Below the pieces are notes generated by a model. That model saw nothing but the letters and a program-made list of their open reading frames with translations, was not told the origin of the DNA and ran no database searches. Shown here one piece after another: positions 56 to 26,247 of a stretch of DNA of 29,084 bases (positions are counted from its first letter, which is position 1; each line of letters starts with the position of its first letter). Made by a program: the position numbers and the translations under genes. This DNA comes from Thermodesulfobacteriota bacterium (lineage in GTDB: Bacteria; Desulfobacterota; Desulfobacteria; Desulfobacterales; SURF-7). The stretch covers positions 1 to 29,084 of the forward strand of contig JBMORA010000010.1 in assembly GCA_049320885.1 (NCBI GenBank), read 5' to 3'.

Positions 56-1441
56 ACGACAGCAACCAAAGAGCAGAAACAATATGATGTGATTGTCGCC
101 GGGTCCGGTCCCGGAGGGGCGACGGTGGCAAGGGAAATGTCCCGACGGGGGAAAAAGACCCTGATTCTGGAATGGGGGGGCAATGCTCCCATCACCGGAA
201 CCGCGGCGCAATTTTTCGCCCAGGCGGGCATTCCCGGAAAAAGTCTGATGATCACGAACAATGTCCTCGGCATGGTGCGCGGCATCACCACCGGCGGCAG
301 TTCGGTGTTTTATTACGGCACGGCTTTCGCTCCACCGGTGGGGATGCTGAAAACCCACGGCATCGAAATTGAAGAAGAAATCGAGGAGATTCATCAGGAG
401 CTGCCCACCAAACCCCTGGCGGATCATCTCATCGGTCCCATGGCCCGTCGCATCATGGAAAGCGCCGGGGAACTGGGGTACGACTGGAAACCCCTGCCCA
501 AATTCGTCTACCAGGAGCGTTGCCAGCCCAATTGCTGGCGCTGCAATTACGGATGCCCCTTCGGCGCCAAATGGAATGCCCGGATGTTTGTCAACCAGGC
601 CATCGATCAAGGCGCAACCTTGACGACCGGCGCCAAAGTCGAACGCGTGCTGCTGGAAAACAACAAGGCCGTGGGCGTGGAGTACCGGCAAAACGGGGCC
701 GTCCGGCGCGTTCATGCGCCGCTGGTGGTTCTTGCCGCAGGCGGAATCGGCTCCCCCATGATTTTACGGCAGACTGGAATCAAAGAAGCCGGTTATAACT
801 GGTTTTTCGACCCGCTGATCACGGTGATGGGCACCGTGGACGATATGTCCGGGGGAAGGGAGTTTCCCATGGCGGCCGGACTGCACATGGAGGAAGAAGG
901 CTATGTCATGACCGACATGACCGTGCCCCTCAGTCTGCATTTGCTGTTCAATACCGAAATTTTCCGCTTCGACAAGCTCGGGTCCCACCCTAGAACCCTT
1001 TCCATCATGATCAAGATAAAGGATGAACTGGGGGGCAGATTGACGGAGACAGGGGGCGTGCGCAAAAAACTTCTCCCGGCCGACAAGGAGAAGATCATGC
1101 GCGGCTATGGCCGGGCCAGGGACATCCTGAAAAACGCCGGAGCCGTTGATGTATGGAAAAGCTGGTACATCGCCGCGCATCCAGGGGGCACGGTGAAGGT
1201 CGGGGATTTGCTGGACAGCAATCTGAAAACCGGAATTGATAACCTGTATGTCTGTGACTGTTCGGTGATTCCGGAAGCCTGGGGACTGCCGCCCACCTTC
1301 ACCATTATTGCGTTGGGCAAGCGGCTGGCCAAACACCTGACAGCGGATCGCGCCTTGTCGGGTGCCGCCCAAACGGCAGCGAAAACAGTCACCGGCCCGG
1401 AACAATCGAATTCGCACCACCGGAAGGGAACCCTTTTATGA
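56..1441 (+). CDS. GMC-family FAD oxidoreductase with Cys cluster (5' end probably lost in poly-C)
   Basis: Rossmann motif YDVIVAGSGPGG, GITTGGSS, VVLAAGGIGSP, C-terminal HPGGT and NLYVCDCSVIP…PPT; Cys motif CQPNCWRCNYGCP. Frame stays open upstream of GTG 89 back to the poly-C. Confidence 0.85.
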   Translation, partial: TTATKEQKQYDVIVAGSGPGGATVAREMSRRGKKTLILEWGGNAPITGTAAQFFAQAGIPGKSLMITNNVLGMVRGITTGGSSVFYYGTAFAPPVGMLKTHGIEIEEEIEEIHQELPTKPLADHLIGPMARRIMESAGELGYDWKPLPKFVYQERCQPNCWRCNYGCPFGAKWNARMFVNQAIDQGATLTTGAKVERVLLENNKAVGVEYRQNGAVRRVHAPLVVLAAGGIGSPMILRQTGIKEAGYNWFFDPLITVMGTVDDMSGGREFPMAAGLHMEEEGYVMTDMTVPLSLHLLFNTEIFRFDKLGSHPRTLSIMIKIKDELGGRLTETGGVRKKLLPADKEKIMRGYGRARDILKNAGAVDVWKSWYIAAHPGGTVKVGDLLDSNLKTGIDNLYVCDCSVIPEAWGLPPTFTIIALGKRLAKHLTADRALSGAAQTAAKTVTGPEQSNSHHRKGTLL

Positions 1442-2895
1442 CAGCCATACCTGCTTCCCCACAAGGGCGCGCCGTTGCAAGCGATGCGCGAACAGCGGCG
1501 TTCCTTATCCGCGATTTGCTGGGCACCCGTGAGCTCCGGCAGGCCATCACGTTTCTGATCCCGGAACTGTTGAATCTCTGGGCCGGAAGGAACTCCCTGA
1601 AAAAAATGGTTGCCCGTCCGCTGGAAAAGGTCATCTGCGATGGCGTCCGTCCGCCGGATAATGAGCGCTGCCCATCGCTTCTGGATGAAGAGATGCTTGC
1701 CGGACGCTTGGAGGCGTTGCTGCCCCTGCTTTCCTCCGTGCTGTTCGACGTTGCCGACACCGTCGGTCGCGGCATGGAGAATTTGACGCCCGAAAAACAG
1801 GAAAAGGTGTTGAGCGCCTGCATTTCCAGCCTGACCACCGGCCGGAGCGGCGAAATGATCGCCAGGCTCGGCCGCATGATCGGGCGGATCCACCAGCGCA
1901 ATCCCCGATTTGTAACCGAAGCCCTGCAACCGGGTTTTCAACGCTGGATGGAAAGCATTGATTTCGGCGAACTCCGGGAAACGCTGGACCGTTCAGCTGC
2001 CGAGACGGCGGCTTTTGCAACCATGATCAATGATGTACTGTGGCGGTATCCCGCCAAGCTCGTCCTGGCGCTTTCCTGCCTGCCGGATCTGGCAAATGCC
2101 GGCGGCGTGATTCTGCGGGAGTCCCTGGGGCGTTTCAATCAGGTGTCGCCGGATCTGGTGGCGGATATCGTCCTGTCCCTGCTGCGCCATCTGGACGGCG
2201 CCGTCATGGGGAAATGCATCCAGGAAGCCGCGGACTTGATTCACAAGGTGCACACCGGCAGCGCGCTCATCGGTGATCCGGGGGTTCCGCAGTTTGTCCA
2301 GGATCTGAAAAAACTCGCCCAGGAGACGGCCGCCGGAATTGACGGGGTTTCCCTGGCCAAAGCCCGCAAGGCCTTGGCGGAAGATCGGGAAGTCATTGGC
2401 CGGGTTATGACGGATACCCTGAAAGCCCGGCCGGAATTATGGCATCAGCAGCTCCGGCAATGGGGGGAACTCAAGAACCCGGGCCTTCGGGCGGCGCGCC
2501 ATCGGCTTTCCTCCCTGGAAGAATTTTCCGGAGATTCAGCCGTCGAGGCCATGGCCGACGGCATCACCGAACTGGATATTCAGGAAGCCGCGGAATTGGT
2601 CAATCTGGTTTCCCGGATCGTCTCCCGTCTGCAGACGGCTCGGCCCCAGACCCTGACGATGCTGGCGACCCAATTCACCGAAGGTTTGGATTTGTTCGAA
2701 GTCACCTCCGCGGTTGAAAACGCGGCGGCCGTGCTGGGGGATTCCCTGGCCCCCGCCGGACGGGCGATCCTTCCTCCATTGCTCCGGACAGTCGGCCGCT
2801 GGATGCAGCCTGCCGATGACGAATTCGAGGACGAAATGCGGGCGGCCAGGGCGACCCTGCGCCGCCTGTTGACGGAAGAGGAGGTGACCCCATGA
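1438..2895 (+). CDS. Hypothetical helical Leu/Ala-rich protein (485 aa)
   Basis: Long ORF overlapping both neighbours by 4 nt (ATGA); no catalytic motif recognised. Confidence 0.8.
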   Translation: MTAIPASPQGRAVASDARTAAFLIRDLLGTRELRQAITFLIPELLNLWAGRNSLKKMVARPLEKVICDGVRPPDNERCPSLLDEEMLAGRLEALLPLLSSVLFDVADTVGRGMENLTPEKQEKVLSACISSLTTGRSGEMIARLGRMIGRIHQRNPRFVTEALQPGFQRWMESIDFGELRETLDRSAAETAAFATMINDVLWRYPAKLVLALSCLPDLANAGGVILRESLGRFNQVSPDLVADIVLSLLRHLDGAVMGKCIQEAADLIHKVHTGSALIGDPGVPQFVQDLKKLAQETAAGIDGVSLAKARKALAEDREVIGRVMTDTLKARPELWHQQLRQWGELKNPGLRAARHRLSSLEEFSGDSAVEAMADGITELDIQEAAELVNLVSRIVSRLQTARPQTLTMLATQFTEGLDLFEVTSAVENAAAVLGDSLAPAGRAILPPLLRTVGRWMQPADDEFEDEMRAARATLRRLLTEEEVTP

Positions 2896-4031
2896 TGGAG
2901 CTGTTCCATGACGCCGCCACCCGCATCAACAGCCAGGCCATCCGGGAATGGAAATCCCGGGGCAAAAAGATCGTCGGCACCACCTGTTCCTATGTTCCGG
3001 CGGAAATCTTCCATGCCGCCGGGATTCTTCCCGTGCGGCTGCGGGGAATTGAAACGGACAACATGGCCATCGGCGACGCCTATTTCGGACCGTATATCTG
3101 TTCCTTTCCCAAATGCCTGCTCCAGCTGGCCGGTGAAGGCCGCTTCGCCTTTCTGGACGGCACGGTCATCACCCCGGGATGCGACGCCATGCGAAGGCTG
3201 GACGATTGCTGGCGGAAAGCCGGCGAGGATCATCCGGGCATCGTGCCGTCCTTTTTTTATTATTTCGATGTCCCTCACAAGACCGCGCCCCACGGCATGA
3301 AATGGTTTGAGGAAGAAATCCGCAATCTCGTCGGGGCCGTGGAGAGACATTTTGATATCCGGATGGATGAAGATCGTCTGCGCGCTTCCATTGCGGTTTA
3401 CAACAAAGGACGGCGCCTGTTGAAAATCCTGGAGGATATCCGCCGTACCTCCCGGACGGGAATATCCGGGGCGGATGCGTTCGCCGTGGCCGTTGCCGGG
3501 ACCGTCCTGCCCCGCGAAAGCTATAATGCCGCCCTGGAGTGTCTTGTCCGGCAACTGGAGGAGCAGACACCGGACATCGTCAATGGTAAAACAAGACTGA
3601 TGGTTTTGGGCAGCATCAGTGACGACATGGACTTGATCCGACTGATCGAGGGTCATGCAAAAGCCGTGGTGGTGGCGGAAAACCTCTGTTTCGGCGTGCG
3701 CTATGAGGGGCACGAGATCGATGAAACCGGCGATCCGATAACCGCCCTGGCGGAAGGGTATCTCGGTGAATCCACCTGTCCGCGGATGTATGGAAAATAC
3801 GCGGAGCGCCTGGAAATCCTGAAGCAGACCATCCGGCGCGCCGGAGTACAGGGCGTGGTGATGCAGAATATCCGTTTTTGCGACCTGCACGGTTCGGAAA
3901 ACAGTCTTTTCGAACGGGATCTGGAAGCCATGGGCATACCCTGTCTGAAAATCGAGCGCGAATACGGCCCCTTGGTGGAAACCGGGCGAATCCGGATGCG
4001 TCTGGATGCGTTCATGGAAAGAATGATGTGA
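2892..4031 (+). CDS. BCR/HAD-family subunit (BzdN/BcrC/HgdB-like), copy 1
   Basis: GKKIVGTTCSYVPAEIFHAAGILPVRL, ICSFPK, GCDAMRR, NLCFG, TCPRM, GVVMQNIRFCDLH, GIPCLKIEREY…RLDAFME; SD GAGGTG. Confidence 0.9.
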   Translation: MMELFHDAATRINSQAIREWKSRGKKIVGTTCSYVPAEIFHAAGILPVRLRGIETDNMAIGDAYFGPYICSFPKCLLQLAGEGRFAFLDGTVITPGCDAMRRLDDCWRKAGEDHPGIVPSFFYYFDVPHKTAPHGMKWFEEEIRNLVGAVERHFDIRMDEDRLRASIAVYNKGRRLLKILEDIRRTSRTGISGADAFAVAVAGTVLPRESYNAALECLVRQLEEQTPDIVNGKTRLMVLGSISDDMDLIRLIEGHAKAVVVAENLCFGVRYEGHEIDETGDPITALAEGYLGESTCPRMYGKYAERLEILKQTIRRAGVQGVVMQNIRFCDLHGSENSLFERDLEAMGIPCLKIEREYGPLVETGRIRMRLDAFMERMM

Positions 4032-4035
4032 AAAC

Positions 4036-4193
4036 AATTACGAGTGGGGAATTACGAATTACGAATGGCGGATTCGGACAGGCAGGCATGATGAAACGAT
4101 TGCCGTTCCCATTTCAGCCGGTGTGTGAGCAGGACTACATTGATGATTGATAGCATACCATCATTCGTAATTCGTAATTCGTAATTTCTAATT
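4036..4193. repeat. Inverted arrays of the AATTACG/CGTAATT heptamer
   Basis: AATTACG at 4036, 4050, 4057; CGTAATT x3 at 4166-4186; 4050-4067 is the perfect reverse complement of 4162-4179. Confidence 0.9.
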
Positions 4194-4209
4194 AATTAAT
4201 GAGGTGTGC

Positions 4210-5610
4210 ATGCGACCGGAGATCAGGGAATTCAATTATGACTGGATGCTGTGGCGGATCCTGGATCCGGCCTCCCGGACAGCCGACGGAACGCCGAAGG
4301 AACTGGAGTATATGTATCGTTATGCCCCATATTTCAAAGGCATTCTGCAGCCGATACTACGGGAGGGCGCTCCCGGAGTCCTGTTCCTCAAGCTGTTGAA
4401 CCGATATCTGGAAAACGTCAACACCGCCCGCGCCCGGGGCAAGAAGATCGCCATCACGACCTTCTGTTTTTCCCCGGCCATCTGTTATGCCCTGGATATC
4501 GTGCCGGTTACCCTGGAAGTGATCACGGCCGTGGGCGGCCTGATGTGGAAGCGCGGCACCTTCGACTACCTGGATTACGCCTGTGAAATCGGGTTCACCG
4601 AAACTTCCTGCTCTTCCCAACGCGGCGCCCTGGGAGCATATCTGGCGGGCCTCGGCGAGGAAATCGACATGGTGTTGTGCGACACCCCCGGTATTTGCGA
4701 CACCAACGCCAATGCCTTCGCCTTCGCCGCCGCTTACCTGAAAAAACCGTTTTACCAGCTGAATTATCCCCAAAGTCTGGGGGACAAACGCACCGATACC
4801 TATCATGTGGACGATTACAAGGCCATGATACAGTTCATGGAAGAGCAATCCGGAAACCGGCTGGATTTGGACCGATTGCGGGAGATTTTGATGGAAGTCG
4901 ACAAACAGGACGCGCTCATCGCCGACCTGGAGGACATGCACCGCCTGGTGCCGACACCGTTGCCGTCTCTCTATAATCTGTTCAATTATGTCGGTCGGTT
5001 TTTATTCTCGGGGTCGCCCGAATACACCCGCCTGCTCGAGCAGATGGTCCAGAAGACCCGGGAAAACGCCGAGGCCGGGCGTTCCGGTTTGCATTCCGGC
5101 AGGGAAAAACTGCGGGCCTTTCTTTGTTATATCGACCATTATTCCCTGAACTGGAATTTCTGGAAGTGGCTGGACGACCACGGCATCGCGCATATGGGGG
5201 GAATCCTCTCCCGGGGATTCCGGGACAACTCCTGCTATGTCGACGGGTTGCCCGGTTCCGCCTACAGCGTGGATACAAGCAGCCTGGACACCATGATCGA
5301 CAGCATCGCCCAGATGAACGCGCGTCTGCCCATGGTCAGATCCATCCGGGGGCCCTTCGATCAGCCCAATATGTGGCTGGAGGAATCCCTGGCCGTGGCA
5401 AAGATTTTCCGGGCCGATTGCATGATCTACAACGGCACGCCGGGGTGCCGGAATACCTGGGGCATGGTGAAGCCTTTCGCCAGGGAAATCGAAAAACACG
5501 GCTATCCGGTGCATATCATGTACGCGGACGCCTTTGACGACCGGGTGGAGTCCTGGGCCGCTACGGCCGAACGGTTGAATGAATTTTTTCAGGTAAGGGG
5601 GTTGCTATGA
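4210..5610 (+). CDS. BCR/HAD-family catalytic-type subunit (BzdO/BcrB/HgdA-like), copy 1
   Basis: ARARGKKIA, ETSCSSQRG, GICDTNA, QFMEEQSGNRLDLDRLRE, PGCRNTWG, YADAFDDR; SD GAGG before ATG 4210. Confidence 0.85.
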   Translation: MRPEIREFNYDWMLWRILDPASRTADGTPKELEYMYRYAPYFKGILQPILREGAPGVLFLKLLNRYLENVNTARARGKKIAITTFCFSPAICYALDIVPVTLEVITAVGGLMWKRGTFDYLDYACEIGFTETSCSSQRGALGAYLAGLGEEIDMVLCDTPGICDTNANAFAFAAAYLKKPFYQLNYPQSLGDKRTDTYHVDDYKAMIQFMEEQSGNRLDLDRLREILMEVDKQDALIADLEDMHRLVPTPLPSLYNLFNYVGRFLFSGSPEYTRLLEQMVQKTRENAEAGRSGLHSGREKLRAFLCYIDHYSLNWNFWKWLDDHGIAHMGGILSRGFRDNSCYVDGLPGSAYSVDTSSLDTMIDSIAQMNARLPMVRSIRGPFDQPNMWLEESLAVAKIFRADCMIYNGTPGCRNTWGMVKPFAREIEKHGYPVHIMYADAFDDRVESWAATAERLNEFFQVRGLL

Positions 5611-6389
5611 CATTGGTGGCCGGATGTGATGTGGGGTCGTTGACTTCCAAAGCGGTCATTATGAACAAGGGTCGCATTCTCGGCGCCTTCATGACCAGGT
5701 CGCGGGTCAAACCCGAGATGTCGGCCGATGACGCCATGGCCGGCGCCCTGAAAATGGCGCAGGTTGCCATGAAAGACATCTCCCGTTGCGTCGGCACCGG
5801 TTATGGTCGGGAAAAAATTCCCTTCGTCAACGACGTTGTTTCGGAGATCGCCTGTCATGGGAAGGGCGCCCGATGGCTGGTTTCATCCGCCCGGACCATC
5901 ATTGATATCGGCGGACAGGATTGCAAGGCCATGCATATCGACGATGCGGGCCGGGTGGTCAAATTCATCACCAACGACAAATGCGCTTCCGGAACGGGTC
6001 GATTCCTGGATGTCATGGCGCGGGTTTTGGGCGTTTCCGTGGATGAATTGGGACGATTTTCCGCCCGGGCGAAAGAACCGGTGACCCTGGCTTCCACCTG
6101 TACGGTATGGGCCCAGGCGGATGTGATCAAGTATTTGAATTCCGGTGTGCCCATAGAGGATATCGGTGCGGGCATCAATACGGCCATGGCCAGCCGTATC
6201 GCCATACTGGCCAACTCCGTCCGGGCCGAAGGGGATGTCTGCATGACCGGCGGCGTGGCCAAGAATGCGGGGGTCGTCCAGACCCTTGAGAAACTCATCG
6301 GCCATCGTGTCAAGGTGCCCCGGAAGGCTGATCCGCAGCTGGCCGGGGCCATCGGGGCCGCCATCGTGGCGATGGAAAATTACGAATGA
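5607..6389 (+). CDS. ASKHA ATP-dependent activase (HgdC/BzdP-Q family), copy 1
   Basis: GCDVGSLTSK, GTGYGR, SEIACH, IDIGGQDCK, NDKCASGTG, STCTVWAQAD, TGGVAKN, GAIGAA. Confidence 0.92.
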   Translation: MTLVAGCDVGSLTSKAVIMNKGRILGAFMTRSRVKPEMSADDAMAGALKMAQVAMKDISRCVGTGYGREKIPFVNDVVSEIACHGKGARWLVSSARTIIDIGGQDCKAMHIDDAGRVVKFITNDKCASGTGRFLDVMARVLGVSVDELGRFSARAKEPVTLASTCTVWAQADVIKYLNSGVPIEDIGAGINTAMASRIAILANSVRAEGDVCMTGGVAKNAGVVQTLEKLIGHRVKVPRKADPQLAGAIGAAIVAMENYE

Positions 6390-6415
6390 CTATTCGTAAT
6401 TCGTAATTCGTAATT
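6378..6415. repeat. Second AATTACG/CGTAATT heptamer hairpin, overlapping a stop codon
   Basis: AATTACGAAT (6378-6387)-GACT-ATTCGTAATT (6392-6401), then two more CGTAATT. Confidence 0.88.
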
Positions 6416-6432
6416 AACCAAAGGGGGTGCGT

Positions 6433-7212
6433 ATGTTTGTGGCCGGTTGTGATGTCGGATCCTTGACCGCCAAGGCGGTGATCATGGAAGGCGAGCGGAT
6501 TGCCGCCCAGGCGGTCGTACGGGTCAAAACCGATCCGGCCCGGTCGGCCGAGGAGGTCCTCCACGCCGCCTTGACCCGGGCCGGGATATCCCTGGGAGAT
6601 CTCCAATACACCGTCGGCACGGGATACGGGAAAGCACGGATTCCCTTTGCCGGAAGGACGGAGTCGGAGATCACCTGTCATGCCAGGGGCGCCCGGTGGA
6701 AAAAACCGTCCGCCAGAACGGTCATCGATATCGGCGGTCAGGATGCCAAGGCCATCCGCCTGGATGCGGACGGGAAAGTGGTCCGCTATATCTACAACGA
6801 CAAATGTGCTTCCGGCACGGGGCGCTTCCTGGAGGTCATGGCGGAAGCATTGGAGGTGAAGCTGGAGGAGATGGGGAGAATCGGCCAAGGCGCCACCCGG
6901 AAGATCACCATTTCCAACCAGTGCGTGATATTCGCGGAAACCGAGGTGGTATCGCTGATCAACGAAGGCCGGGAAATGCCGGATATCGTCAACGGACTCC
7001 ATCATGCCATGGCGGGACGGGTGGCATCCCTGGCCCGCAGTATCGGTGTGGATCAGGATGTGATCATGACCGGCGGGGTCGCCAAGAACAGCGGGTTGTT
7101 CCAGGCGCTTTCCGAACACCTGGGGCTTCCCCTGCTGCATCTCGATGGGCTCGATCCCCAGATCAACGGCGCCCTGGGAGCGGCCCTGATCGCCGGGGAA
7201 TATGCAACATGA
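6433..7212 (+). CDS. ASKHA ATP-dependent activase, copy 2
   Basis: GCDVGSLTAK, GTGYGK, SEITCH, IDIGGQDAK, NDKCASGTG, NQCVIFAETE, TGGVAKN; SD AGGGGG before ATG 6433. Confidence 0.92.
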   Translation: MFVAGCDVGSLTAKAVIMEGERIAAQAVVRVKTDPARSAEEVLHAALTRAGISLGDLQYTVGTGYGKARIPFAGRTESEITCHARGARWKKPSARTVIDIGGQDAKAIRLDADGKVVRYIYNDKCASGTGRFLEVMAEALEVKLEEMGRIGQGATRKITISNQCVIFAETEVVSLINEGREMPDIVNGLHHAMAGRVASLARSIGVDQDVIMTGGVAKNSGLFQALSEHLGLPLLHLDGLDPQINGALGAALIAGEYAT

Positions 7213-7261
7213 AAAACGAATGGAGAATCCGTAACCGGGATTAAGCGTAAGGAAACAAGGT

Positions 7262-8578
7262 ATGGGACATCTGGTCGGAAAAGACGTCTATCGCAGACTG
7301 GGAGACAAAATCGACAACCTGACGCTCCGGGCGCCCTGGAACCCGGCTTTTCGGGAGTTGCTGGCAGCCCTGTACAGTCCCGAGGAAGCCGAACTGGTCG
7401 TGAACATGCCTTTCGGCCTGTCTTCCATCCAGCGGATATCCGGGATTACGAAAATTCCCATCGAAAAACTGCGGCGGCTGCTGGAAACGCTTTGCGGCCG
7501 GGGCCTGGTGATTGATCTGTGGATCCAGGAAGCCTATTGTTACGCCCCGTCGCCCCTGGCCATCGGCATATTCGAGTTCACCATGATGCGCACCGGCGAG
7601 GGGCTGGATCACAAGGGTTGGGCCCGGTTGTTTCATGACTATATTCACCAGGACGGCGGCCAGGTCTATGCCGCCAATTTCGACCGGGCGCAGCAACTGT
7701 CCCTCATGCGCACCCTGCCGCATGAAACGGCGCTTCCCAACACGCCCCACGTGGAAATCCTGGATTATGAGAAAGCCACGGAAATCATTGCCGCGGCGGA
7801 AAAATTTTCCATCGGTATCTGTTCCTGCCGTCATGAAAAATCCCACGTGCATGCCAAGCCCTGTGATGTGCCCATGGACAACTGCACGGCCTTGGGGTAC
7901 GCCGCCGACTATCTTATCCGCCGGAATCTGGCCCGGGAGGTTTCCCGCACGGAAATGCTGGAGAATCTGGCGCGTTCCCGGGAGCTGGGCCTGGTGCTCA
8001 ATGCCGACAACGTGCAAAAAAATGTCACCTATATCTGCAACTGCTGCGGCTGCTGTTGCAATATTCTCCAGGGCCTCAACACCTTTGGATATGAAAATGT
8101 GATCGTGACGTCCAGTTTCATCGCCGAGATCCGGGTCGACGAGTGCAGCGGTTGCGGTAAATGCGCCAAAGCCTGCCCGGTCAACGCCGTGGAGATGCGG
8201 CCGATTTCCCATGGGGAGAAGCGCGAACGGAAACAACCCGTTGTCGACGCCGGCATTTGTCTCGGCTGCGGGGTATGCGTACTCAAATGCGAAAAAAAAG
8301 CGCTGCGGCTGATCAAGCGCAAGCAGCGGGTGCTCCACCCGGAAACGACGTTTCGGCGTGTCATCCTCCAGTGTCTGGAACGCGGAACCCTTCAGAACCA
8401 GATTTTCGACAATCCCCAAAGCCGTTCCCAGGCTTTTTTGCGCGGAGTACTGGGTGGCTTTCTGGGTTTGCCGCCGGTGAAAAAGGCCCTGATGAGCGAC
8501 ACCCTGCGCTCGACTTTTCTGAAACTGATGGAAACCGGCGTGAAATTGCAGGGCAAGGGCTGGGCTGTCGAGATTTAA
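7262..8578 (+). CDS. Multi-Cys Fe-S protein with C-terminal 2x[4Fe-4S] ferredoxin domain
   Basis: CSGCGKCAKACP and CLGCGVCVLKC; additional ICSCRH…PCDVPMDNC and ICNCCGCCC. Confidence 0.88.
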   Translation: MGHLVGKDVYRRLGDKIDNLTLRAPWNPAFRELLAALYSPEEAELVVNMPFGLSSIQRISGITKIPIEKLRRLLETLCGRGLVIDLWIQEAYCYAPSPLAIGIFEFTMMRTGEGLDHKGWARLFHDYIHQDGGQVYAANFDRAQQLSLMRTLPHETALPNTPHVEILDYEKATEIIAAAEKFSIGICSCRHEKSHVHAKPCDVPMDNCTALGYAADYLIRRNLAREVSRTEMLENLARSRELGLVLNADNVQKNVTYICNCCGCCCNILQGLNTFGYENVIVTSSFIAEIRVDECSGCGKCAKACPVNAVEMRPISHGEKRERKQPVVDAGICLGCGVCVLKCEKKALRLIKRKQRVLHPETTFRRVILQCLERGTLQNQIFDNPQSRSQAFLRGVLGGFLGLPPVKKALMSDTLRSTFLKLMETGVKLQGKGWAVEI

Positions 8579-8581
8579 ACC

Positions 8582-9319
8582 ATGGAACTGTTTGAAACCC
8601 AATTTCAGGCCATTCGCGATTTTTTGGCTGCCGGCGGCCGGTCGGAAGCAATGAAAACCCTTGGGGCTCAGCCGGTTTCCTGGCCCGCCGGGCTGGGACG
8701 GAATCTGATTTTGTCCCGGGATACGGCCGTGGAGCTGGGTAATCCCCGGGAGGCTTCTACATCCTTCATCCTGTGGACCGGACACCGGGACAAGGTGATG
8801 GACGGCCGAATCCGGCTTCTGGGGCCGGATCTGCCGGCAAGCAGGGGACGCAGCCTGCCCTTCGGGAAAGTCGTCCTGATCCACGGCGACGGGTTCACCC
8901 CGGACAATACATATCCGCGTTATCGGGAGATGGAAGGGCTGCGATATCAGTTGGACCTCAGGGGATATATGTTGCGGGCGGTATCCCAATACCAGCGGGA
9001 ATGGAGCCGGGTGTCATGGGGGGCGCTGGAAACGGGATTTTCCTTTTCGGTGCTGGGCCGCGCCATCATCGATCAGTATCGCGCGATCGATTATGTCGGC
9101 GCGGTGGAAATCCTTTTCGTGACGGACGCACCGGAAACCGTGCGGGCGCTCCAGGCCATCGGGGATCAGGCCGGCCGGGTTGTCGGAGCCTTGAACCGGA
9201 TGAGCGTGGAGATGTCTTTTGACTGCGACAGCTGTGAATACGTCGATGTCTGCGGCGATGTGGCCGCCCTGCGAGCCATGAGAAGGAATCCAGCGGAGAG
9301 GACTGCCGTCCATGGATGA
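8582..9319 (+). CDS. Stand-alone acetyl-CoA synthase (AcsB/CdhC) middle-domain-like protein with C-terminal CxxC-x5-C
   Basis: DTAVELGNP…DGRIRLLGPDL…SLPFGKVV…WSRVSWGALETGFSFSVLGRAI…VEILFVTD parallels the AcsB middle domain as recalled (DGKIEVIGPDI…LPLGI…WLRVSKDAVAKGFRF…VQVTIFTD); ends FDCDSCEYVDVC. Confidence 0.7.
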   Translation: MELFETQFQAIRDFLAAGGRSEAMKTLGAQPVSWPAGLGRNLILSRDTAVELGNPREASTSFILWTGHRDKVMDGRIRLLGPDLPASRGRSLPFGKVVLIHGDGFTPDNTYPRYREMEGLRYQLDLRGYMLRAVSQYQREWSRVSWGALETGFSFSVLGRAIIDQYRAIDYVGAVEILFVTDAPETVRALQAIGDQAGRVVGALNRMSVEMSFDCDSCEYVDVCGDVAALRAMRRNPAERTAVHG

Positions 9320-10097
9320 GCCGAAAATTTCCAAGCCGGTGGTCATCGCCGTTTGCGGCAAGGGGGGGGTGGGGAAAACCTCCATCAGCGCCGTGATGAC
9401 CAGGATCCTTTCCGGCCATGAGAACAACAAGGTGCTGGCGGTTGACGCCGATCCGGCCGCGGGTCTGGCGGGCGCGCTGGGTTTCACGGCGGCAAGGACC
9501 GTGGACCAGATCCGCAGCGAACTCATCGAGCGCATCCGGCAAAACGCCGGGGGCGACCGGGGGGAAATCATCGCCCGGATGGATTACGAGGTGCTGGAAG
9601 CCCTGGAGGAAGATCGCAATATCGCCTTCCTGGCCATCGGCAGACCGGAGCTGGAAGGATGTTATTGCCAGGTCAACCGGTTCTTAAAGGAGATCATCGC
9701 CGCGGTTGCGGCGGGTTTTGACTTTGTGGTCATTGACGGGGAGGCCGGTGTCGAACAGATCAACCGGCGGGTCATGGAGACCGTCACCCATCTGGTGCTG
9801 GTGTCGGACGCTTCGGTCAGGGGCCTGCGCGTGGCGGAGACCATTCTGGGGATGGCGGCAAAAGCCGTTGCCCATGAAAAAAGCGGTCTGATCCTGAACC
9901 GGCTCCGGGGGCCATCGGAAAGAGAGCGGCTGCGGATTCCGGCCGCCGCGGGCATTCTGGGATGGATTCCGGAAGATGACACGGTGCGGAATTTTGATAT
10001 CGCGGGCAGAAATTTCCTGGAATTGCCTGATTGTTCCATGATGCGGGGGGTTTCGGAATTCCTGGAAAAACTGGGCGTGATCCCGGTACAGGCGTAA
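9312..10097 (+). CDS. cooC: CooC/AcsF-type nickel-insertion ATPase (MinD/SIMIBI family)
   Basis: Deviant Walker A GKGGVGKT, VLAVDADP, metal-binding GRPELEGCYC, Walker B/switch VIDGEAGVEQINR. Confidence 0.85.
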   Translation: MDEPKISKPVVIAVCGKGGVGKTSISAVMTRILSGHENNKVLAVDADPAAGLAGALGFTAARTVDQIRSELIERIRQNAGGDRGEIIARMDYEVLEALEEDRNIAFLAIGRPELEGCYCQVNRFLKEIIAAVAAGFDFVVIDGEAGVEQINRRVMETVTHLVLVSDASVRGLRVAETILGMAAKAVAHEKSGLILNRLRGPSERERLRIPAAAGILGWIPEDDTVRNFDIAGRNFLELPDCSMMRGVSEFLEKLGVIPVQA

Positions 10098-10124
10098 CAA
10101 GGCTCTGGGAGAGAGGGAATTATC

Positions 10125-11255
10125 ATGGATTTCGGTGCGTGGCAGGCGTTTCTGGGGGACATGCTCCGGGAACCGGAAAACGGTTTCCTGGTGAGCGCCT
10201 CGGCAGAGGGCAGAATCCCGGTGGGTTATACGTGCAGCTATGTGCCCCAGGTGATTCTTTCCGTGGACGGATTGGTGCCGGTGCGGCTGCGCGCGCCGGG
10301 TGCGGCGGGCACCGAGATCGCCGATATCTACCTCTCCAACGTCGTCTGCTCCTATACTAGAAGCCTGCTGGAGTTCGCCATGGACGGCCGCTACGATTTT
10401 CTGGGCGGCTGGGTGTTCGCATCCGGATGCGATCATATCCGCCGGCTGCTGGACAACCTCGTGTATCTGCGGACGCCCCGTTTTACTCACATGGTCGACG
10501 TTCCGCATCGCCGGGGGGCTATGGCCCTTGCCTGGTACGAGGAGGAACTCTGCGTCTTGTGTGCGCGGTTATCCGCGGCCTTCGGTGTGGACACCGGCCG
10601 AGCGGCCCTGAGCCGGGCGATTTCCCGATACAATGATTTCAACCGCAAGGTGCAGATCATCGGCGATTGCCGCAAGGAAAAAAATCCGCCCGTCAGCGGC
10701 ACCGAATTCCAGCGCATCATGATCGCCTCCCTTTCCGGCGGCCGCGATCAAATGATGGCGGCATTGGACCGCATGGCCGGTGAGATCCCGGGACGACCGG
10801 GAAACAACCGATACCGGGCCCGGCTCATGGTGGTGGGTGGAAACGTGGATGACACGGCTTTTATCGAGTTGCTGGAGTCCAGCGGTGGAATTGTGGTGGC
10901 CGATCGTTTCTGCACCGGCTCCATTCCCGAAACGGAACTGATTGACGAGGGTGGCGATCCCCTGAAGGCCATTGCGAAGTACACCCTGGACCGGCAAGCC
11001 TGTCCGCGCATGATGGAGGATTTTACGGAACGAATGGCGGCCATTTTGCGGACCCGTGATGAATACCAAGCGGACGGCGTGGTCATCGAGAATCTCAAGT
11101 TCTGCGATATCTGGGGGATCGAGTCCGCTCTGCTGGTCCAGGCGTTGCGGGATGCCGGAGTTCCGGTTCTCCGGGTGGAGCGGGATTATCGGCAGGGGAG
11201 TGAAGGACAGTTGCGCACCCGGGTCCAGGCCTTTATCGAGAGCATGGGGAAATGA
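10125..11255 (+). CDS. BCR/HAD-family subunit (BzdN/BcrC/HgdB-like), copy 2
   Basis: VGYTCSYVP, VCSYTR, GCDHIRR, DRFCTG, ACPRM, DGVVIENLKFCD, GQLRTRVQAFIE. Confidence 0.9.
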   Translation: MDFGAWQAFLGDMLREPENGFLVSASAEGRIPVGYTCSYVPQVILSVDGLVPVRLRAPGAAGTEIADIYLSNVVCSYTRSLLEFAMDGRYDFLGGWVFASGCDHIRRLLDNLVYLRTPRFTHMVDVPHRRGAMALAWYEEELCVLCARLSAAFGVDTGRAALSRAISRYNDFNRKVQIIGDCRKEKNPPVSGTEFQRIMIASLSGGRDQMMAALDRMAGEIPGRPGNNRYRARLMVVGGNVDDTAFIELLESSGGIVVADRFCTGSIPETELIDEGGDPLKAIAKYTLDRQACPRMMEDFTERMAAILRTRDEYQADGVVIENLKFCDIWGIESALLVQALRDAGVPVLRVERDYRQGSEGQLRTRVQAFIESMGK

Positions 11256-12763
11256 TGAACGGAAAACGGATTCCGGCAGGGTCGGGCAACCCGTCGGCAG
11301 GCGCGTGGATGGGGGATCTGCTGGTGTATATTCGGTATTCGACGGTCAATTGGCTCAAGATCATCGCCCTGGTGATCAAGCACGGTCCTTTGGACACGGT
11401 CCGGGACCTCCGCCGTTATCCCTGGATTCTGGTGCTGCTGCAGGTCAATCGCCTGCTGTGGCGTTTTATCCGGGGAAGGCGCGGCCGTTACCGGAAAGCC
11501 ACCGCCATGGTGATGGCCGATATCGTCGCCGGGGTGATCCGCATGATGGACGATGTGTTTTTCCGGGGGGAGCGCCTGGTCATCCATGAGGACATGGTGC
11601 CGCCGGAAATCATTCGGGCCATGGGGCTGGTGCCCTTCATGGCCGAACTGATGGGCATCCTGATGCCCATGATCCGGCCCCACTCGGTGGAGGCGTATAT
11701 CGATGCGTGTGAAAACGCCGGCATTCCTCCGGACATCTGCAGCCTGCCCAAAAGCACCATGGGCTTGACCCTGATGGGGCATCTGCCGCCGGCCCTGGCC
11801 GTCATCACTTCCAATCTCCCCTGCGACGGCGGCATGGCTTCCTATGCCTTGATGGAAAGGGAACTGGGGTTGCCCACCATCCGCCTGGATATACCGTATC
11901 GGTTCACCGATGAAAAAGCGGTGGATTATTTCGTCGGGGAGCTGAAGCGGCTGATCGGCTGGCTGGAAGCCCGCACGCCCGGCCGGATGGATTGGGAGCG
12001 ACTCAAGAATATCTGTGAAGAACGCAACCGCATGCTGGCCTTCGAACAGGAGTTGTGGGAACTGATCCGGATTCGTCCGGCGCCCATGGCCGGCGAACCG
12101 ATCTGGCTGAGTCACATGTGGAATTTCAATGTGACGCCCGGCAGCGCCGACAGCACCCGCACGTTCGAGCGGATTGTCGCCATGGGGAGACAAAATCTGG
12201 AAGAGGGGGTGGACCCCGTCGGTGAGAGATACCGCGCCCTGCTCTGGAATCCGCCCACCATTCATTTCATCGATATCTATAATTGGGCGGAAAAGGCCTA
12301 CGGCGTTTCACTGATCATGGACAGCATGACCTTCAACCGCATCGAGCCCATCGACACCGGAACGCCGGAATCGATGCTGCGCGGCCTTGCCAAAACCATC
12401 ATGAACGGACCCATGGCCCGTCACACCAGGGGACCGGCTGAAAACTACGTCAACGACATTTTCCACATCACCAGACAATTTGACATCGATATGATCTGGG
12501 TAGCCGGTCATATCGGCTGTAAAAACACCCAGGCGTTGAACGGCATGCTGCGGGAACTGTGCCGCCGGGAGGGCATTCCGCTGCTGATCATTCATTACGA
12601 CCTTTCGGATCCGCGCATCGTATCCCGGGAGGGCATCATCGAGCAGATCGATCATTTCATGGAAAACATCATGAAAGCCCGGCGCCTGCCTTTGGGCGGC
12701 GATCGAGGAATGGCCAAGGGCCGCAAGGACCTGACGGTCCTGGGACAAAAGGAGGCGGTATGA
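11252..12763 (+). CDS. BCR/HAD-family catalytic-type subunit (BzdO/BcrB/HgdA-like), copy 2
   Basis: VPPEIIRAMG, DICSLPK, LPCDGG, RLDIPY, HIGCKNT, YDLSDPR; start could instead be the downstream MGDLL ATG. Confidence 0.85.
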   Translation: MMNGKRIPAGSGNPSAGAWMGDLLVYIRYSTVNWLKIIALVIKHGPLDTVRDLRRYPWILVLLQVNRLLWRFIRGRRGRYRKATAMVMADIVAGVIRMMDDVFFRGERLVIHEDMVPPEIIRAMGLVPFMAELMGILMPMIRPHSVEAYIDACENAGIPPDICSLPKSTMGLTLMGHLPPALAVITSNLPCDGGMASYALMERELGLPTIRLDIPYRFTDEKAVDYFVGELKRLIGWLEARTPGRMDWERLKNICEERNRMLAFEQELWELIRIRPAPMAGEPIWLSHMWNFNVTPGSADSTRTFERIVAMGRQNLEEGVDPVGERYRALLWNPPTIHFIDIYNWAEKAYGVSLIMDSMTFNRIEPIDTGTPESMLRGLAKTIMNGPMARHTRGPAENYVNDIFHITRQFDIDMIWVAGHIGCKNTQALNGMLRELCRREGIPLLIIHYDLSDPRIVSREGIIEQIDHFMENIMKARRLPLGGDRGMAKGRKDLTVLGQKEAV

Positions 12764-13572
12764 CCAAACGGGGATTGAAACCATACTACGGAGGCTGCGA
12801 TATCGGCTCCACCACCGGAAAAGCCGTGATCCTGAACGGCGAGGGCGTTGTCGCGTCCGCCATCGTTCCCAGCGAAATCGATCCGGCCCGCACCGCCGAC
12901 ATCGTCCTGCGGGCCGCATGCCGCCAGATAGAAGATCTCGGGGACATCCGGAATCTGTCGTATCTGATCGGTACGGGTTACGGGCGCAACGAAGTGCCGT
13001 TTGCCCACGAGAATCTATCTGAAATCAGTTGCCATGCCATGGGGGTCCATTATTGCGACCCGAACATCCGGACGATCATCGATATCGGCGGGCAGGATGT
13101 CAAGGGGATCGCGCTGGATGAGACCGGCGGGGTAACGGAATTCGCCATGAACGATAAATGCGCGGCCGGAACCGGACGGTTCCTGGAAATGATGAGCCGG
13201 ATATTCCGGATGGATCTGGAGGAGTTTTCCCGGCTGTCCCTTACGGCCAGCCGCACGATTCCGGTGACGTCCCAATGCAGTGTGTTCGCCGAAACCGAAG
13301 TCATCAGCCTGCTCAGTCAACGAAAACCCGCGGCGGAAATCGCCGCCGGCATCCAGGCGTCGGTGGCCAAGCGTGGTTTCAGCCTGCTGAAAAAGATCGG
13401 TATCCGTCCCCGGGTGACCATCACCGGCGGATGCGCCAAAAACAAGGGGCTGGTAACCGCCCTGGCCGGATACCTGCGCGAGGATGTCCGGCCGCTTTCC
13501 GTGGATCCCCAATTGATGGGCGCGCTGGGCGCCGCCGTCATCGGTCGCCTCCGGGCTGGTGGCATGGCATGA
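12760..13572 (+). CDS. ASKHA ATP-dependent activase, copy 3
   Basis: GCDIGSTTGK, GTGYGR, SEISCH, IDIGGQDVK, NDKCAAGTG, SQCSVFAETE; SD AGGAGG and ATGA overlap put the start at 12760, not 12559. Confidence 0.92.
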   Translation: MTKRGLKPYYGGCDIGSTTGKAVILNGEGVVASAIVPSEIDPARTADIVLRAACRQIEDLGDIRNLSYLIGTGYGRNEVPFAHENLSEISCHAMGVHYCDPNIRTIIDIGGQDVKGIALDETGGVTEFAMNDKCAAGTGRFLEMMSRIFRMDLEEFSRLSLTASRTIPVTSQCSVFAETEVISLLSQRKPAAEIAAGIQASVAKRGFSLLKKIGIRPRVTITGGCAKNKGLVTALAGYLREDVRPLSVDPQLMGALGAAVIGRLRAGGMA

Positions 13573-23182: not shown

Positions 23183-23614
23183 ATTGAATTTTATTATGAA
23201 TTTCAGATTGTTTGCTGAAAAACCGTTGAATTCATTCCGTACCTGTGCCATGGTGGGCGGCGATCCGGGTGACACACAGCGCGGGCGTCGGTGTGACGGG
23301 ATGATATGGCCCTGCCTCCCGTTGCCCTGCGAAAACCATACGCCTGCTTTTCATCATTCCGTAATATACCTATGACATCAAATTCCTATTCATGGCGCAA
23401 GGCAAACCGGCTGTTATGGTTCGTCATGACGGCAGTTCTGGTGTTCCGGCTGCGCCTGTCGGCCATGATTGCCGCTGCCCGCCGTTATGATACCCGTCGC
23501 TGGCTCTGTTTCTTTCTGTTTTCACCCGTGGAAATATATGGATACCTTGTGGAACATTCGGGAAACTTCGATCCGCCCGCAACCAATCGCCTTGCCGATC
23601 GCGGCGACGACCCA

Positions 23615-24688
23615 ATGGACGACATCGCAGGGAAGAACACCGGACCAATGGATTCCAAGTATACCCATGACGATCCCTATCGTCTTGCCGGCGGCAATAA
23701 TGCGGTCAGCGTCGCCGACGAAACCAGCGCCTATGATGCAGCCGGCAACAGCCAAAGGCAGTGGAAAGATATTGGAATCAGCAATTGTTTCCATCAAAGT
23801 GATAAAGGCCTGATTAGCGAGTATGACGGCACCGGGTCTGAGATCAAGACATATGGGTACAAACCCGGCAGCACCTGGACCACTGATCCGCTATTCATGA
23901 AAGTCGGAACCGAGTACTACTTCTATCACAACGACCATCTCGGGACACCCCAGAAGCTGACAACCATCAGCGGGGCCGTGGTCTGGTCGGCGAAATACAG
24001 TTCATTCGGTAAAGCGGAAATCGATCCGGCATCCACGGTTGTCAACAATCTGCGGCTCCCGGGCCAGTATTACGATGGTGAAACAGGATTACAGTATAAT
24101 TACTACCGATATTACAACCCAACGACAGGGAAGTATACACAGACCGATCCAATCGGATTTGCGGGAGAAGATTTCAATTTGTTTAACTATGTAGTTGGGA
24201 ATCCAGTCAATTTTATAGATCCTTTTGGACTAAAGTCAAGGTGGGGATGCATTGGTGCATGTACAGCGGATGCAACTTTAAATTTTACATTTGGTTTTAT
24301 TCCTAGCTTTAAATTTGCGACAGAAATTCTGTTTGGTGCGGACATAAACGTATTCCAAGCTAAAGGAGGTTATGATTCAATAATTGATCAGGATGTTACT
24401 GGCCTGTTAAGTGGCTTTAGCTCTCTTGGATATGGAATAGCAAAAAGCAATTATGACGTTTCTGGTGGTACAAGAGAACTTAACAGAACAGCCGAACTTA
24501 TTAAACGAAGAAGCTTTGAAAACAAACCATTATATAAACAAATCAAAATGAAAGATAAGCTCAGCAATTTAACAAAGCTTCGTAATATTTCTAGGATGAT
24601 GGGAAGAATTAATGGAATTTTTAATGCACTTGATTTTGCGATGGATCTTTATAGCTGTCATGAGAAATGCAAAAAATTCGACTGCTAA
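23615..24688 (+). pseudogene. Orphan Rhs cassette 1: degenerate YD-repeat fragment, Rhs core and C-terminal toxin (24233-24688)
   Basis: YTHDDPYRL, YDAAGN, YFYHNDHLGTP, NLRLPGQYYDGETGLQYNYYRYYNP, DPIG, NPVNFIDPFGL; AT-rich tip; N-terminal shell absent. Confidence 0.85.
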
Positions 24689-24763
24689 TATATAGAAATC
24701 ATAGTAGTTATATTTAATGCAGGGGTGAAATCTGAATTTTAAGCAGAAAAGATTAAAGAAATT

Positions 24764-25213
24764 ATGATTGGTAAAATATTAGGAAGTCTTTATGGCTTTG
24801 GAACATCATTCTTATTCGTAATTCTTTATATATTTAGCTATATAGGCCAAATGAAAGAAGCGATGATTGATATTGTAATGATAATAGCTTTCATCAATGG
24901 AATTTTTATCTTGTTTATTTATTTAACCCGATATGAAGATCGGTTTCATTGGGAACCACTTTATCTTTCAAATAAATTAGTAATGAATACTTGTTGGTTT
25001 TATTTTTGGGCAATGTTTGTCAATGTCGCAATAAATTTAATTATTTTATTTACTAATCAATCTGAACAAATGAATGACACTTATTCAATTCGCAATTTAT
25101 ATAGCATTATGTCCTTCATGTCGTTAATAATTGGAATATCATTTACAGTAGGATTAAGAAACCTTCTTCCCAAATGGGATCGCGTTTACCGTTTTCTTGG
25201 ATTTCTTGAATAG
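24764..25213 (+). CDS. Putative membrane immunity protein for Rhs tip 1
   Basis: 149 aa, about four hydrophobic segments, very AT-rich, directly downstream of the toxin. Confidence 0.75.
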   Translation: MIGKILGSLYGFGTSFLFVILYIFSYIGQMKEAMIDIVMIIAFINGIFILFIYLTRYEDRFHWEPLYLSNKLVMNTCWFYFWAMFVNVAINLIILFTNQSEQMNDTYSIRNLYSIMSFMSLIIGISFTVGLRNLLPKWDRVYRFLGFLE

Positions 25214-25298
25214 CCTGGATTCCCATGTTAGTTTTCTGAGTTAACACCACGGCATCCAATCAGCCGAAAACGAGGCGCAGTTTTTTACCCCGGCCGTG

Positions 25299-25322
25299 GC
25301 CGATAATAGCGCTATTATCGGC
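25299..25322. repeat. Perfect 24-bp palindrome
   Basis: GCCGATAATAGC|GCTATTATCGGC. Confidence 0.85.
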
Positions 25323-25412
25323 TGCGCCAAACGGAGGGTCATTTCTCGTTGCGGAGTCCCCGGCGTACCAGCAGCCGGCGGAGAAGGCCCCTGCGCGCGG
25401 GCGTGAGAACGC

Positions 25413-25487
25413 TTGGGGGTCGGGCCATGGAAGATGCACGCCAATCAAGGACTTGACCCCAAAACAAGGCCGGTTTTAGGCCCTATA
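25413..25487. repeat. GGGGTC…GACCCC hairpin plus CAAAACAAGGCC motif, copy 1 of 3
   Basis: GGGGTCGGGCC…GGACTTGACCCCAAAACAAGGCCGGTTTTAGGCCC; related copies at 26145-26190 and 27838-27909. Confidence 0.8.
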
Positions 25488-25488
25488 A

Positions 25489-25719
25489 CTTACATTTCGC
25501 ACCACCAAAAAAGATTCCAATAATTTATGAATCGCGCCCCTGGATAGGACGTAATATATGGTAATAACAGTACAATAAAAAAAATCTAGACTTTTTCATT
25601 AAAAAGCCTTATATCCCTCCTTAAAAACGAAATAGGAGGGTTCTATGGGGCAATTTGAAACACGATTCAAACAAGTCGATGCATTGCCGATGGTCAAGCA
25701 TTTCATGGATGAGCTGTGA
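25489..25719 (+). mobile_element. Probable IS1634-family left end with truncated transposase N-terminus
   Basis: CTTACATTTCGCAC end-like motif; SD AGGAGG, then 25645-25719 MGQFETRFKQVDALPMVKHFMDEL* resembling the DUF4277 N-terminus of IS1634 transposases. Confidence 0.5.
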
Positions 25720-25869
25720 TTTTCCAAAATACTATCATAATTTTTGCCGAATTAACGGTCATACGATTTGGGCGGTTTTTTGGGGTTTTGCCAAATTGAA
25801 ATGGTCTTTTGGAGAAGCCATCGTTTCCAAATTTTTTTGATGCCGTCGATAGACTTGCCGTTAAAAAAA

Positions 25870-25981
25870 GAGGGAAACGAATTGTGCATTCGTTTCCCTC
25901 CAGGGCTTTTTCAAGCCCCCCACATCCGGCTATCCCTTGAGCGGTTGCTCCCCAGCAGAGCCGCTCTCCGTTTCACCGGAC
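25870..25981 (-). other. Multi-hairpin element (candidate ncRNA or mobile-element end)
   Basis: Perfect 13-bp stem 25870-25900; GGGCTT-GAAA-AAGCCC on the minus strand; nested GAGCGG/TGCT stems; TCCG-GTGAAA-CGGA. Confidence 0.45.
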
Positions 25982-26144
25982 ACTTGAATGTTCCCAGCCA
26001 AATTGTTTTTCCGGACAGAACCCCTGCGCACAAGGGCTGAGCCGAAAATCGAGTGACGGCAATTCCGCAAAAGCGCTATTTGTTCACAGCGAACGGAAAA
26101 TGCTTTTCCATACCTCTTTTTTTCTCCAGTTCGTACATGCCCGT

Positions 26145-26190: not shown

Positions 26191-26247
26191 CTGAGTTTTT
26201 GGGGGCTGAAAACGGGCTTATAAGAAATTGGGCAGTCGAAGTGAGTT

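Follow-up and report, generated by a model that had tools for sequence, protein, structure and literature searches.

A stand-alone acetyl-CoA synthase middle domain paired with a CooC-family ATPase: a probable accessory module of double-cubane enzymes resembling 2-hydroxyacyl-CoA dehydratases

What could the middle domain of acetyl-CoA synthase (ACS) do as a protein of its own, encoded together with a CooC-family ATPase at a locus without genes for carbon monoxide dehydrogenase (CODH) and ACS? This question is raised by contig JBMORA010000010.1 of a Thermodesulfobacteriota bacterium (GenBank assembly GCA_049320885.1), of which we analyzed positions 1 to 29,084; this whole stretch of 29,084 nucleotides is referred to here as the window. 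The 245-aa middle-domain protein, hereafter mini-ACS, and the ATPase are the products of genes eight and nine in a co-directional run of twelve genes (89..13572), in which neighboring genes overlap or are separated by less than 50 bases, with a single exception of 172. The two open reading frames (ORFs), at 8582-9319 and 9312-10097, overlap by 8 bases and are flanked by genes for subunits and activators related to those of 2-hydroxyacyl-CoA dehydratase (HAD) and benzoyl-CoA reductase (BCR). We consider it very probable that the pair serves this HAD-type enzyme and not CODH/ACS. Our preferred reading, to which we assign a probability of about one half, is that mini-ACS and CooC form a co-opted ACS/AcsF module maturing or servicing the metal center of the HAD/BCR-like enzyme. 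The pair would then be an accessory module devoted to a single clade of ATP-driven double-cubane enzymes of the HAD/benzoyl-CoA-reductase-like type.

A first-pass annotation, made from the sequence alone, had assigned the 245-aa protein to the AcsB middle domain, and this assignment held. The single Pfam match was to CdhC (PF03598; residues 43-183, E 9e-10), the NCBIfam ACS models gave 27-39 bits against cut-offs of 356-809, and the sequence matched ACS chains in the PDB with 21-23% identity. The AlphaFold model (pLDDT 92) had only ACS chains as structural matches (3git: Z 19.2, root-mean-square deviation (rmsd) 4.4, 181 aligned; 7nyp: Z 18.9, rmsd 2.5, 176 aligned), the next best having a Z of 4.2, and Foldseek confirmed the fold match. 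The sole cysteines of the protein, C215, C218 and C224, lie in FDCDSCEYVDVC (residues 213-224), where the protein had been said to stop; in fact, 21 residues follow the last cysteine, among them a helix predicted in the AlphaFold model. A profile-profile alignment of the mini-ACS family with 24 AcsB/CdhC rows (probability 99%) spanned the linker helix and the CxxC motif, and in global mode the DVC of mini-ACS fell on the HVC of AcsB. The three cysteines therefore correspond to the first three cubane ligands of AcsB, which bears out the initial reading that the CxxC opens the set of A-cluster ligands. Their spacing is C-x2-C-x5-C in place of the C-x2-C-x8-C-x9-C of AcsB. The fourth cubane cysteine, the Cys-Gly-Cys of the distal nickel and the N-terminal domain are all missing, the last two as noted at the outset; no PF19436 match to the C-terminal ACS domain was obtained, and the protein ends at residue 245. 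Judged from these missing parts, mini-ACS cannot be a working ACS, a conclusion that the first reading had already reached.

The likeness to AcsB/CdhC (PF03598; PDB 1oao, 3git, 7nyp, 9g7i) thus covers the middle (A2) fold and the start of A3, and includes the linker helix, the first three cubane cysteines and a Trp/Arg pair at the CoA site. In 10.1101/2024.08.05.606187, the ACS-acetyl-CoA complex of C. autoethanogenum is described as holding CoA mainly by the middle domain, with the adenine stacked on Trp405, and Arg383 and His386 are proposed for acetyl transfer. By a numbering offset of 22, taken from the aligned ranges, Trp405 corresponds to W427 of M. thermoacetica ACS, and W427 and R429 of that enzyme align with W141 and R143 of mini-ACS. 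Arg383 and His386 fall on G119 and Y122 in a part of the alignment that is rich in gaps, near which R121 and Y122 are conserved in the three-Cys form of the family described below. W141, R143 and the Cys tail were invariant in all 90 distinct locus-derived members. Mini-ACS can be regarded as a natural stand-alone version of the CoA-binding domain of ACS.

The genomic company of mini-ACS was examined in 53 close loci and in 20 distant loci taken from lower-scoring matches (73 wide loci), and in 401 genomes of the phylum, comprising 35 carriers of mini-ACS and 366 non-carriers. HAD subunits or activators were present in 49 of the 53 close loci (in three of the other four, the mini-ACS gene lay at a contig end) and in all 20 distant loci. 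The BCR/HAD subunits, which the first-pass annotation had named only as partners for a check, turned out to be the central partner of the pair. CooC was found in 44 close loci, within 300 bases after mini-ACS in 43 of them, and in 11 distant loci, the other 9 having none. The upstream enzyme module (beta 1, alpha 1 and activators 1 and 2) recurred in 42-47 of the close loci, and the downstream module in 21-24. A BLAST search with the source genome's own six proteins detected Wood-Ljungdahl genes in none of the 73 loci; the lone label of this kind, in L051, belongs to a frameshifted mini-ACS piece. In contrast to AcsB and CdhC, mini-ACS was never located beside genes for CODH or the corrinoid iron-sulfur protein in these loci, and the proposed survey of cooS as a neighbor of the homologues gave a negative answer (0/73). 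Two mini-ACS genes (L009:10001-10723 and L194:2024-2827) had neither HAD genes nor CooC in their loci, and their surroundings were otherwise unrelated.

The initial description of a pair without CODH/ACS is correct for the locus and incorrect for the genome, since a complete acsE-acsC-acsB-cooS-acsD-acsV cluster (AcsB of 737 aa; gene names read from the translations) lies on contig C13. The AcsB C-terminal domain was present in the source genome and 22 of the 34 other carriers; it was not found in 12 of these drafts, which represent few families, and CooS was not found in 11. Both matches were lacking in 11 of the 34 carriers, 10 of which are 97-100% complete. CooC adjoined mini-ACS in all 11, and in 7 of the 10 that were searched it was the sole CooC-like match. 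The pair therefore persists in genomes without a CODH/ACS match, which argues against the service of a CODH encoded elsewhere. CbiM/NikM was found in all 11 of these carriers, and 4 had no [NiFe]-hydrogenase match. Among those tested, LarC and HypA were found in 5/5 and urease in 0/5, so nickel uptake in these organisms can be explained otherwise. In four genomes (G109, G307, G331 and G400), matches to HypA and LarC were obtained but none to [NiFe]-hydrogenase, urease, CODH or ACS.

The gene overlapping mini-ACS encodes, as had been read from its motifs, a CooC-family ATPase, with GKGGVGKT at residues 16-23, GCYC at 116-119 and CooC1 as its best PDB match (3kje, E 1.3e-16). It shares with CooC1/AcsF (COG3640; PDB 3kje) the deviant Walker A motif with the signature Lys (G16-K22), the CxC (C117/C119) and the DxEAG switch (D142, E144-G146). 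All these residues are invariant, the CxC in 51/51 sequences of one alignment and 68/68 of another. It differs from CooC1/AcsF in belonging to a clade of its own beside HAD-type genes, present where CODH and ACS were not found. The source genome has three more CooC-like genes besides the window copy. The loop G-x-P-E-x-x-GCYC-x-x-N is common to the window protein and the C64 paralogue, which grouped with acs-linked copies in the tree, a group that we infer to be of the AcsF type; the loop motif of the C55 paralogue resembles that of CooC1. Trees of CooC-like sequences were built with FastTree (136 rows) and with a quick IQ-TREE run (106 rows, 30 near-redundant mini-ACS-linked rows being excluded). 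In the IQ-TREE phylogeny, the HAD-linked CooCs formed one clade (60 rows, SH-aLRT 95), which was found with the acs-linked C64 group on the same side of a branch with a support of 98, apart from the C55 group. This clade splits into a branch of 41 rows, from mini-ACS carriers, and a branch of 19 rows, with no mini-ACS within 7 kb (97 support each). A further CooC group (L274:5922 and look-alikes in family f53, about 260 bits), sister to the HAD-linked clade, adjoins a dihydrolipoamide-dehydrogenase-like gene.

With a profile of the 41-row branch, scores of 270 bits or more were obtained in 34 of the 35 carriers, the missed genome being 85% complete, and in 0 of the 366 non-carriers (best 267). 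Most of the positive carriers had contributed training rows; the two that had not, G111 and G203, scored 315 and 310 bits, and in both the matching CooC is on a contig other than that of the mini-ACS gene. In genomes where the two genes are not adjacent (G011, G042, G052, G079, G111, G203, G258 and G397), a CooC of the carrier branch was present at another place. Mini-ACS thus accompanies one CooC branch, even when this is encoded in trans, and the whole CooC clade accompanies the HAD enzyme. Since this clade includes a branch beside HAD operons without mini-ACS, the ultimate client of CooC is probably the HAD enzyme, and the case for a nickel site on mini-ACS itself is thereby weakened.

The beta subunits gave a comparable picture. 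With a profile of mini-ACS-linked sequences, a high-scoring group (at least 416 bits, the next score being 394) was found in 42 of the 401 genomes, distributed as 31 of the 35 carriers and 11 of the 366 non-carriers. No stand-alone mini-ACS was detected in these 11 non-carriers; their matches were to complete AcsB or to CdhC-like proteins of greater length, except in two genomes, which had none. In 12 loci from ten of them, CooC was beside the HAD genes in 10 and mini-ACS in none.

The flanking enzyme has a four-subunit layout with two different activators (genes 2892-7212). This alpha/beta plus activator arrangement is that of the class I benzoyl-CoA reductase BzdNOPQ (PDB 8s02; PMC11971306), and a similar likeness exists to the double-cubane cluster protein (DCCP; 6eno; PMC7317905) and the 2-hydroxyacyl-CoA dehydratase HadBC (3o3m). 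In contrast to these systems, the window enzyme has mini-ACS, CooC and a helical protein in addition. Both beta subunits keep six cysteines aligned with the double-cubane ligands of BzdN (42/42 and 26/26), which hold an [8Fe-9S] cluster (PMC11971306). The window HAD subunits nevertheless scored below the cut-offs of all BCR, HAD and DCCP NCBIfam models (e.g. BzdN, 138.5 versus 453.8 bits). The alpha subunits keep three cysteines in close relatives and vary widely in distant loci, suggesting different substrates. The catalytic His131 of BzdO, three residues past the second cysteine (Cys128), appears to be replaced by Asn or Gly in the window alphas (N168 or G194, by motif position only); with regard to the other catalytic residue, Glu65, a conserved E105 was observed. 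An extra nickel site in the alpha subunit (C88/D311/H312) was considered and rejected as a general feature, because it is conserved in close relatives and not in distant alphas. At L093:3905-5206, L095:2828-4123 and 6714-8033, L098:8777-9988 and 11169-12491, and L100:5778-7067, either His (GHKD, GHRD) or Asn stands in place of the third alpha cluster cysteine; the forms with His make a Cys2-His cluster in the HAD family possible. Single in-frame TGA codons were observed in two double-cubane beta genes and one AcsB gene (G331:C173:20042-21178, G247:C4:24442-25563 and G397:C1:2389850-2390470).

Acyl-CoA dehydrogenases, CoA ligases, aldehyde:ferredoxin oxidoreductases, SCP2, thiolase, hydratases and GMC or Zn alcohol dehydrogenases recur as neighbors. 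The flanking genes do not recognizably form a benzoate pathway; they would fit the degradation of acids and alcohols of the fatty or terpenoid type. At L098:3036-4793, a linalool dehydratase/isomerase-like gene adjoins mini-ACS, CooC and two alpha/beta pairs, a hint of terpenoid substrates. The source genome also has a paralogous operon on contig C31 (L058; G000:C31:1516-8499), consisting of genes for a helical protein, beta, alpha, two activators and a ferredoxin-like protein. Its enzyme subunits are 50-60% identical to those of the window, and it is without mini-ACS or CooC, which could serve it in trans.

The relatives of mini-ACS are a family of whole small genes and not broken acsB genes. 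There were 877 among 2369 candidates in a search limited to 134-429 aa; without a length limit, 508 representatives at 50% identity were obtained, and the best 150 of these 508 were all at most 310 aa long. Most members are 230-275 aa. The C-x2-C-x5-C motif was present in 120/120 closest relatives, a matching motif in 126 of the 129 representatives that are 215 aa or longer, and it was invariant in a 147-row alignment that excludes, among others, three rows without it. Beyond the Cys tail, the family alignment contained no further conserved Cys or His. Among the 90 locus-derived members, 61 have three cysteines and 29 have a fourth, upstream one. In a FastTree phylogeny rooted on AcsB, the four-Cys forms branched first and the three-Cys forms were nested inside (mixed support). 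No CooC lies within 3 kb in 24 of these 90 members, and the gene is most often directly after that of an activator, an alpha subunit or a ferredoxin-like protein. One homologue (P0035; 1/120 among the matches listed) has a two-cluster ferredoxin domain fused at its C-terminus; a fusion search with the family profile in proteins of 462-2000 aa returned one match, a partial AcsB-like protein (8000 candidates scored, weak). Named hosts include Smithella, Desulfosudis, and Desulfobacterales and Spirochaetota metagenome-assembled genomes. A URO-D-family gene directly follows a four-Cys mini-ACS without adjacent CooC at L096:2746-3789, L097:8729-9811 and L099:8899-9945; the URO-D family includes cobamide methyltransferases. 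Bacterial CdhC-like ACS paralogues of 454-476 aa were observed with a CooC of their own, next to a 913-aa gene of the CODH family and genes for a VWA protein and an AAA ATPase (L227-L231), and split CdhC-like forms of about 307 and 110-140 aa in another family (L178-L180).

How might the pair act? The module would have been borrowed from the ACS system as a CoA-binding middle domain, a stub of the cluster-binding domain and a CooC that appears to be the sister of the ACS-linked (AcsF-type) paralogue. Mini-ACS may bind the adenosine-diphosphate end of CoA or of a CoA ester through W141 and R143, and its Cys tail would hold a single [4Fe-4S] cluster, in which the three-Cys form found here would leave one iron open. 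A CooC dimer would bind a metal, by family precedent nickel, at its CxC interface, hydrolyze ATP on meeting its partner and load, remodel or reactivate the metal center used by the alpha/beta enzyme. Mini-ACS would take part as a docking partner, as a scaffold or as a co-chaperone that responds to CoA. The enzyme itself may act on non-aromatic or lipid-type acyl-CoA esters. AcsF reportedly hydrolyzes ATP on meeting ACS and has a role in ACS maturation. A borrowed ACS-maturation module serving the alpha/beta enzyme is the simplest explanation for the two patterns of co-occurrence, and two of the roles first suggested for mini-ACS, a cluster scaffold or a CoA-ester-binding accessory, both fit the data.

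Several points weigh against this reading. Metal, cluster and CoA binding and the protein contacts of the pair are predictions. The sampled genomes are related to each other and come from one phylum; there is some circularity in the profile counts for beta and CooC, since the training rows came from carriers (for beta, a part of them), and both thresholds were fixed after the scores had been seen. According to PMC11971306, the BzdNO double cubane was assembled in E. coli from a plasmid with bzdNO alone, so double cubanes in general need no such module, and HAD alpha subunits themselves bind the CoA ester, so a second CoA site needs explaining. Mini-ACS is also dispensable in part of the clade, because HAD operons with a CooC of the 19-row branch are without it, and the paralogous operon on C31 has neither gene.

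Mini-ACS may instead be a working turnover subunit, a CoA-ester-gated [4Fe-4S] relay or a substrate arm for the activator or the alpha/beta enzyme, with CooC acting on the enzyme on its own and the two genes merely traveling together. We regard this as possible but not probable. It would account for the usual position of the gene behind an activator, alpha or ferredoxin-like gene, the fused ferredoxin domain, the members without a nearby CooC and the deepest-branching four-Cys form, which suits plain electron transfer. However, the ferredoxin fusion is a single case, and the finding of carrier-branch CooC in trans where it is not adjacent suggests a link between the two proteins. It is also conceivable, although unlikely, that the double-cubane clade is an unrecognized class of nickel enzymes, with an AcsF-derived CooC of its own that inserts nickel beside an Fe-S cluster. 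The nickel would be located in the alpha subunit or else in an A-cluster-like site completed in trans by the CoA-binding mini-ACS.

The first-pass annotation had also raised a minimal Ni/Fe site on mini-ACS served by CooC, and this now appears quite unlikely. The second Cys of the AcsB CxxC bridges the proximal nickel, and CooC would load nickel on the mini-ACS cluster through the corresponding C218, giving a minimal Ni-[4Fe-4S] site for acyl/CO chemistry on CoA esters, with electrons supplied by the ATP-driven reductase. The correspondence of the three cysteines to the first A-cluster ligands, the retained CoA-site residues, the position of the window CooC on the side of the ACS-linked paralogues, the strict genome-level co-occurrence with one CooC branch and the CbiM/NikM-type uptake in the 11 CODH-less carriers would all be expected. 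However, the family has no Cys-Gly-Cys and no other conserved Cys or His to complete such a site, the residues proposed for acetyl transfer appear to be replaced (G119/Y122, in the gappy stretch), 11 carriers have no CODH match for making or removing CO, and the sister CooC branch adjoins HAD operons of the same kind without any mini-ACS that it could load. In addition, the fourth cysteine of 29 of the 90 members would saturate the cubane, which further weakens this proposal. A regulatory role, in which mini-ACS senses CoA or acyl-CoA and the ATPase switches the ATP-costly radical enzyme on or off without delivering metal, seems very unlikely: a CoA site without catalytic residues, the loss of mini-ACS from some operons and the membership of CooC in the MinD/ParA class of switch ATPases are in line with it, whereas the invariance of the metal-binding CxC (68/68) and of the Cys tail (90/90) is not. 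The last alternative, that mini-ACS is a degenerate acsB or that it assists a CODH/ACS whose genes lie at another locus, is largely refuted. The AcsB C-terminal domain in the source genome and most other carriers (22/34) would agree with it, but the size of the family (877 relatives) and the short length of its best members, the 11 carriers without AcsB and CooS matches, and the grouping of separate CooC paralogues of the source genome with acs-linked copies do not.

Table 1. Genes of the co-directional run in the window, with conservation in homologous sequences or close loci where determined
Feature	Coordinates	Strand	Remarks
GMC-family flavin oxidoreductase	89..1441	+	Overlaps next gene; relative in 8/53 close loci
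All-helical protein, 485 aa	1438..2895	+	Relative in 41/53 close loci
HAD/BCR beta-type subunit 1	2892..4031	+	C32, C70, C97, C266, C296 and C330 at BzdN double-cubane positions, each 42/42
HAD/BCR alpha-type subunit 1	4204..5610	+	C136, C165 and C415 49/49; C88 48/49; H312 49/49
ATP-dependent activator 1 (BcrAD/BadFG family)	5607..6389	+	
ATP-dependent activator 2	6427..7212	+	Likely heterodimer with activator 1
Multi-[4Fe-4S] protein, 438 aa	7262..8578	+	Ends 3 bases before mini-ACS; relative in 16/53 close loci
Mini-ACS, 245 aa	8582..9319	+	ACS middle (A2) domain, linker helix, C215-x2-C218-x5-C224 tail; W141/R143 at CoA site
CooC/AcsF-family ATPase, 261 aa	9312..10097	+	Walker A GKGGVGKT, C117-x-C119; HAD-linked clade, mini-ACS-carrier branch
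HAD/BCR beta-type subunit 2	10125..11255	+	Six double-cubane Cys, each 26/26
HAD/BCR alpha-type subunit 2	11252..12763	+	C163, C191 and C423, 25/25
ATP-dependent activator 3	12760..13572	+	

The other genes of the run are listed in Table 1. The helical protein gave no Pfam or NCBIfam match and no lead in an Atlas search, and the best structural match of its model (pLDDT 81) reached a Z of 6.1 across 45 residues. In many of the close loci with its relative, a smaller helical protein of about 215 aa is repeatedly encoded upstream. A promoter and terminator scan yielded counts at chance level. Elsewhere in the window, the region 23306-29084 contains three Rhs-core ORFs with differing C-terminal tips, two of which precede small unannotated ORFs, at low GC content (34-46%), and looks like an Rhs toxin-immunity array. 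The low-complexity run at the contig start (1-55), which reads as poly-Pro, is probably an assembly artefact.

The component families are known, and the combination of mini-ACS, CooC and a HAD-type enzyme was not found described, and neither was the pairing of mini-ACS with CooC, in literature searches aimed at it that covered open-licence PubMed Central and bioRxiv, although supplements and subscription journals could mention the genes. The module is widespread, occurring in 35 of the 401 genomes sampled in the phylum. Its relatives are named ACS beta subunit or hypothetical protein in the databases, and the former label can falsely suggest a Wood-Ljungdahl pathway. The pair ties together two metalloenzyme systems that have been studied separately, one being the maturation of ACS and the other the ATP-driven HAD/BCR/double-cubane family; for most members of the latter, no substrate is known to us. 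The retention of this CooC clade in genomes without a CODH/ACS match implies an unrecognized client for the CooC ATPase family. If the clade did prove to consist of nickel enzymes, ATP-powered low-potential electrons would enable organometallic reactions at C-S or C-C bonds of acyl-CoA esters, and such chemistry would lie outside the Wood-Ljungdahl pathway.

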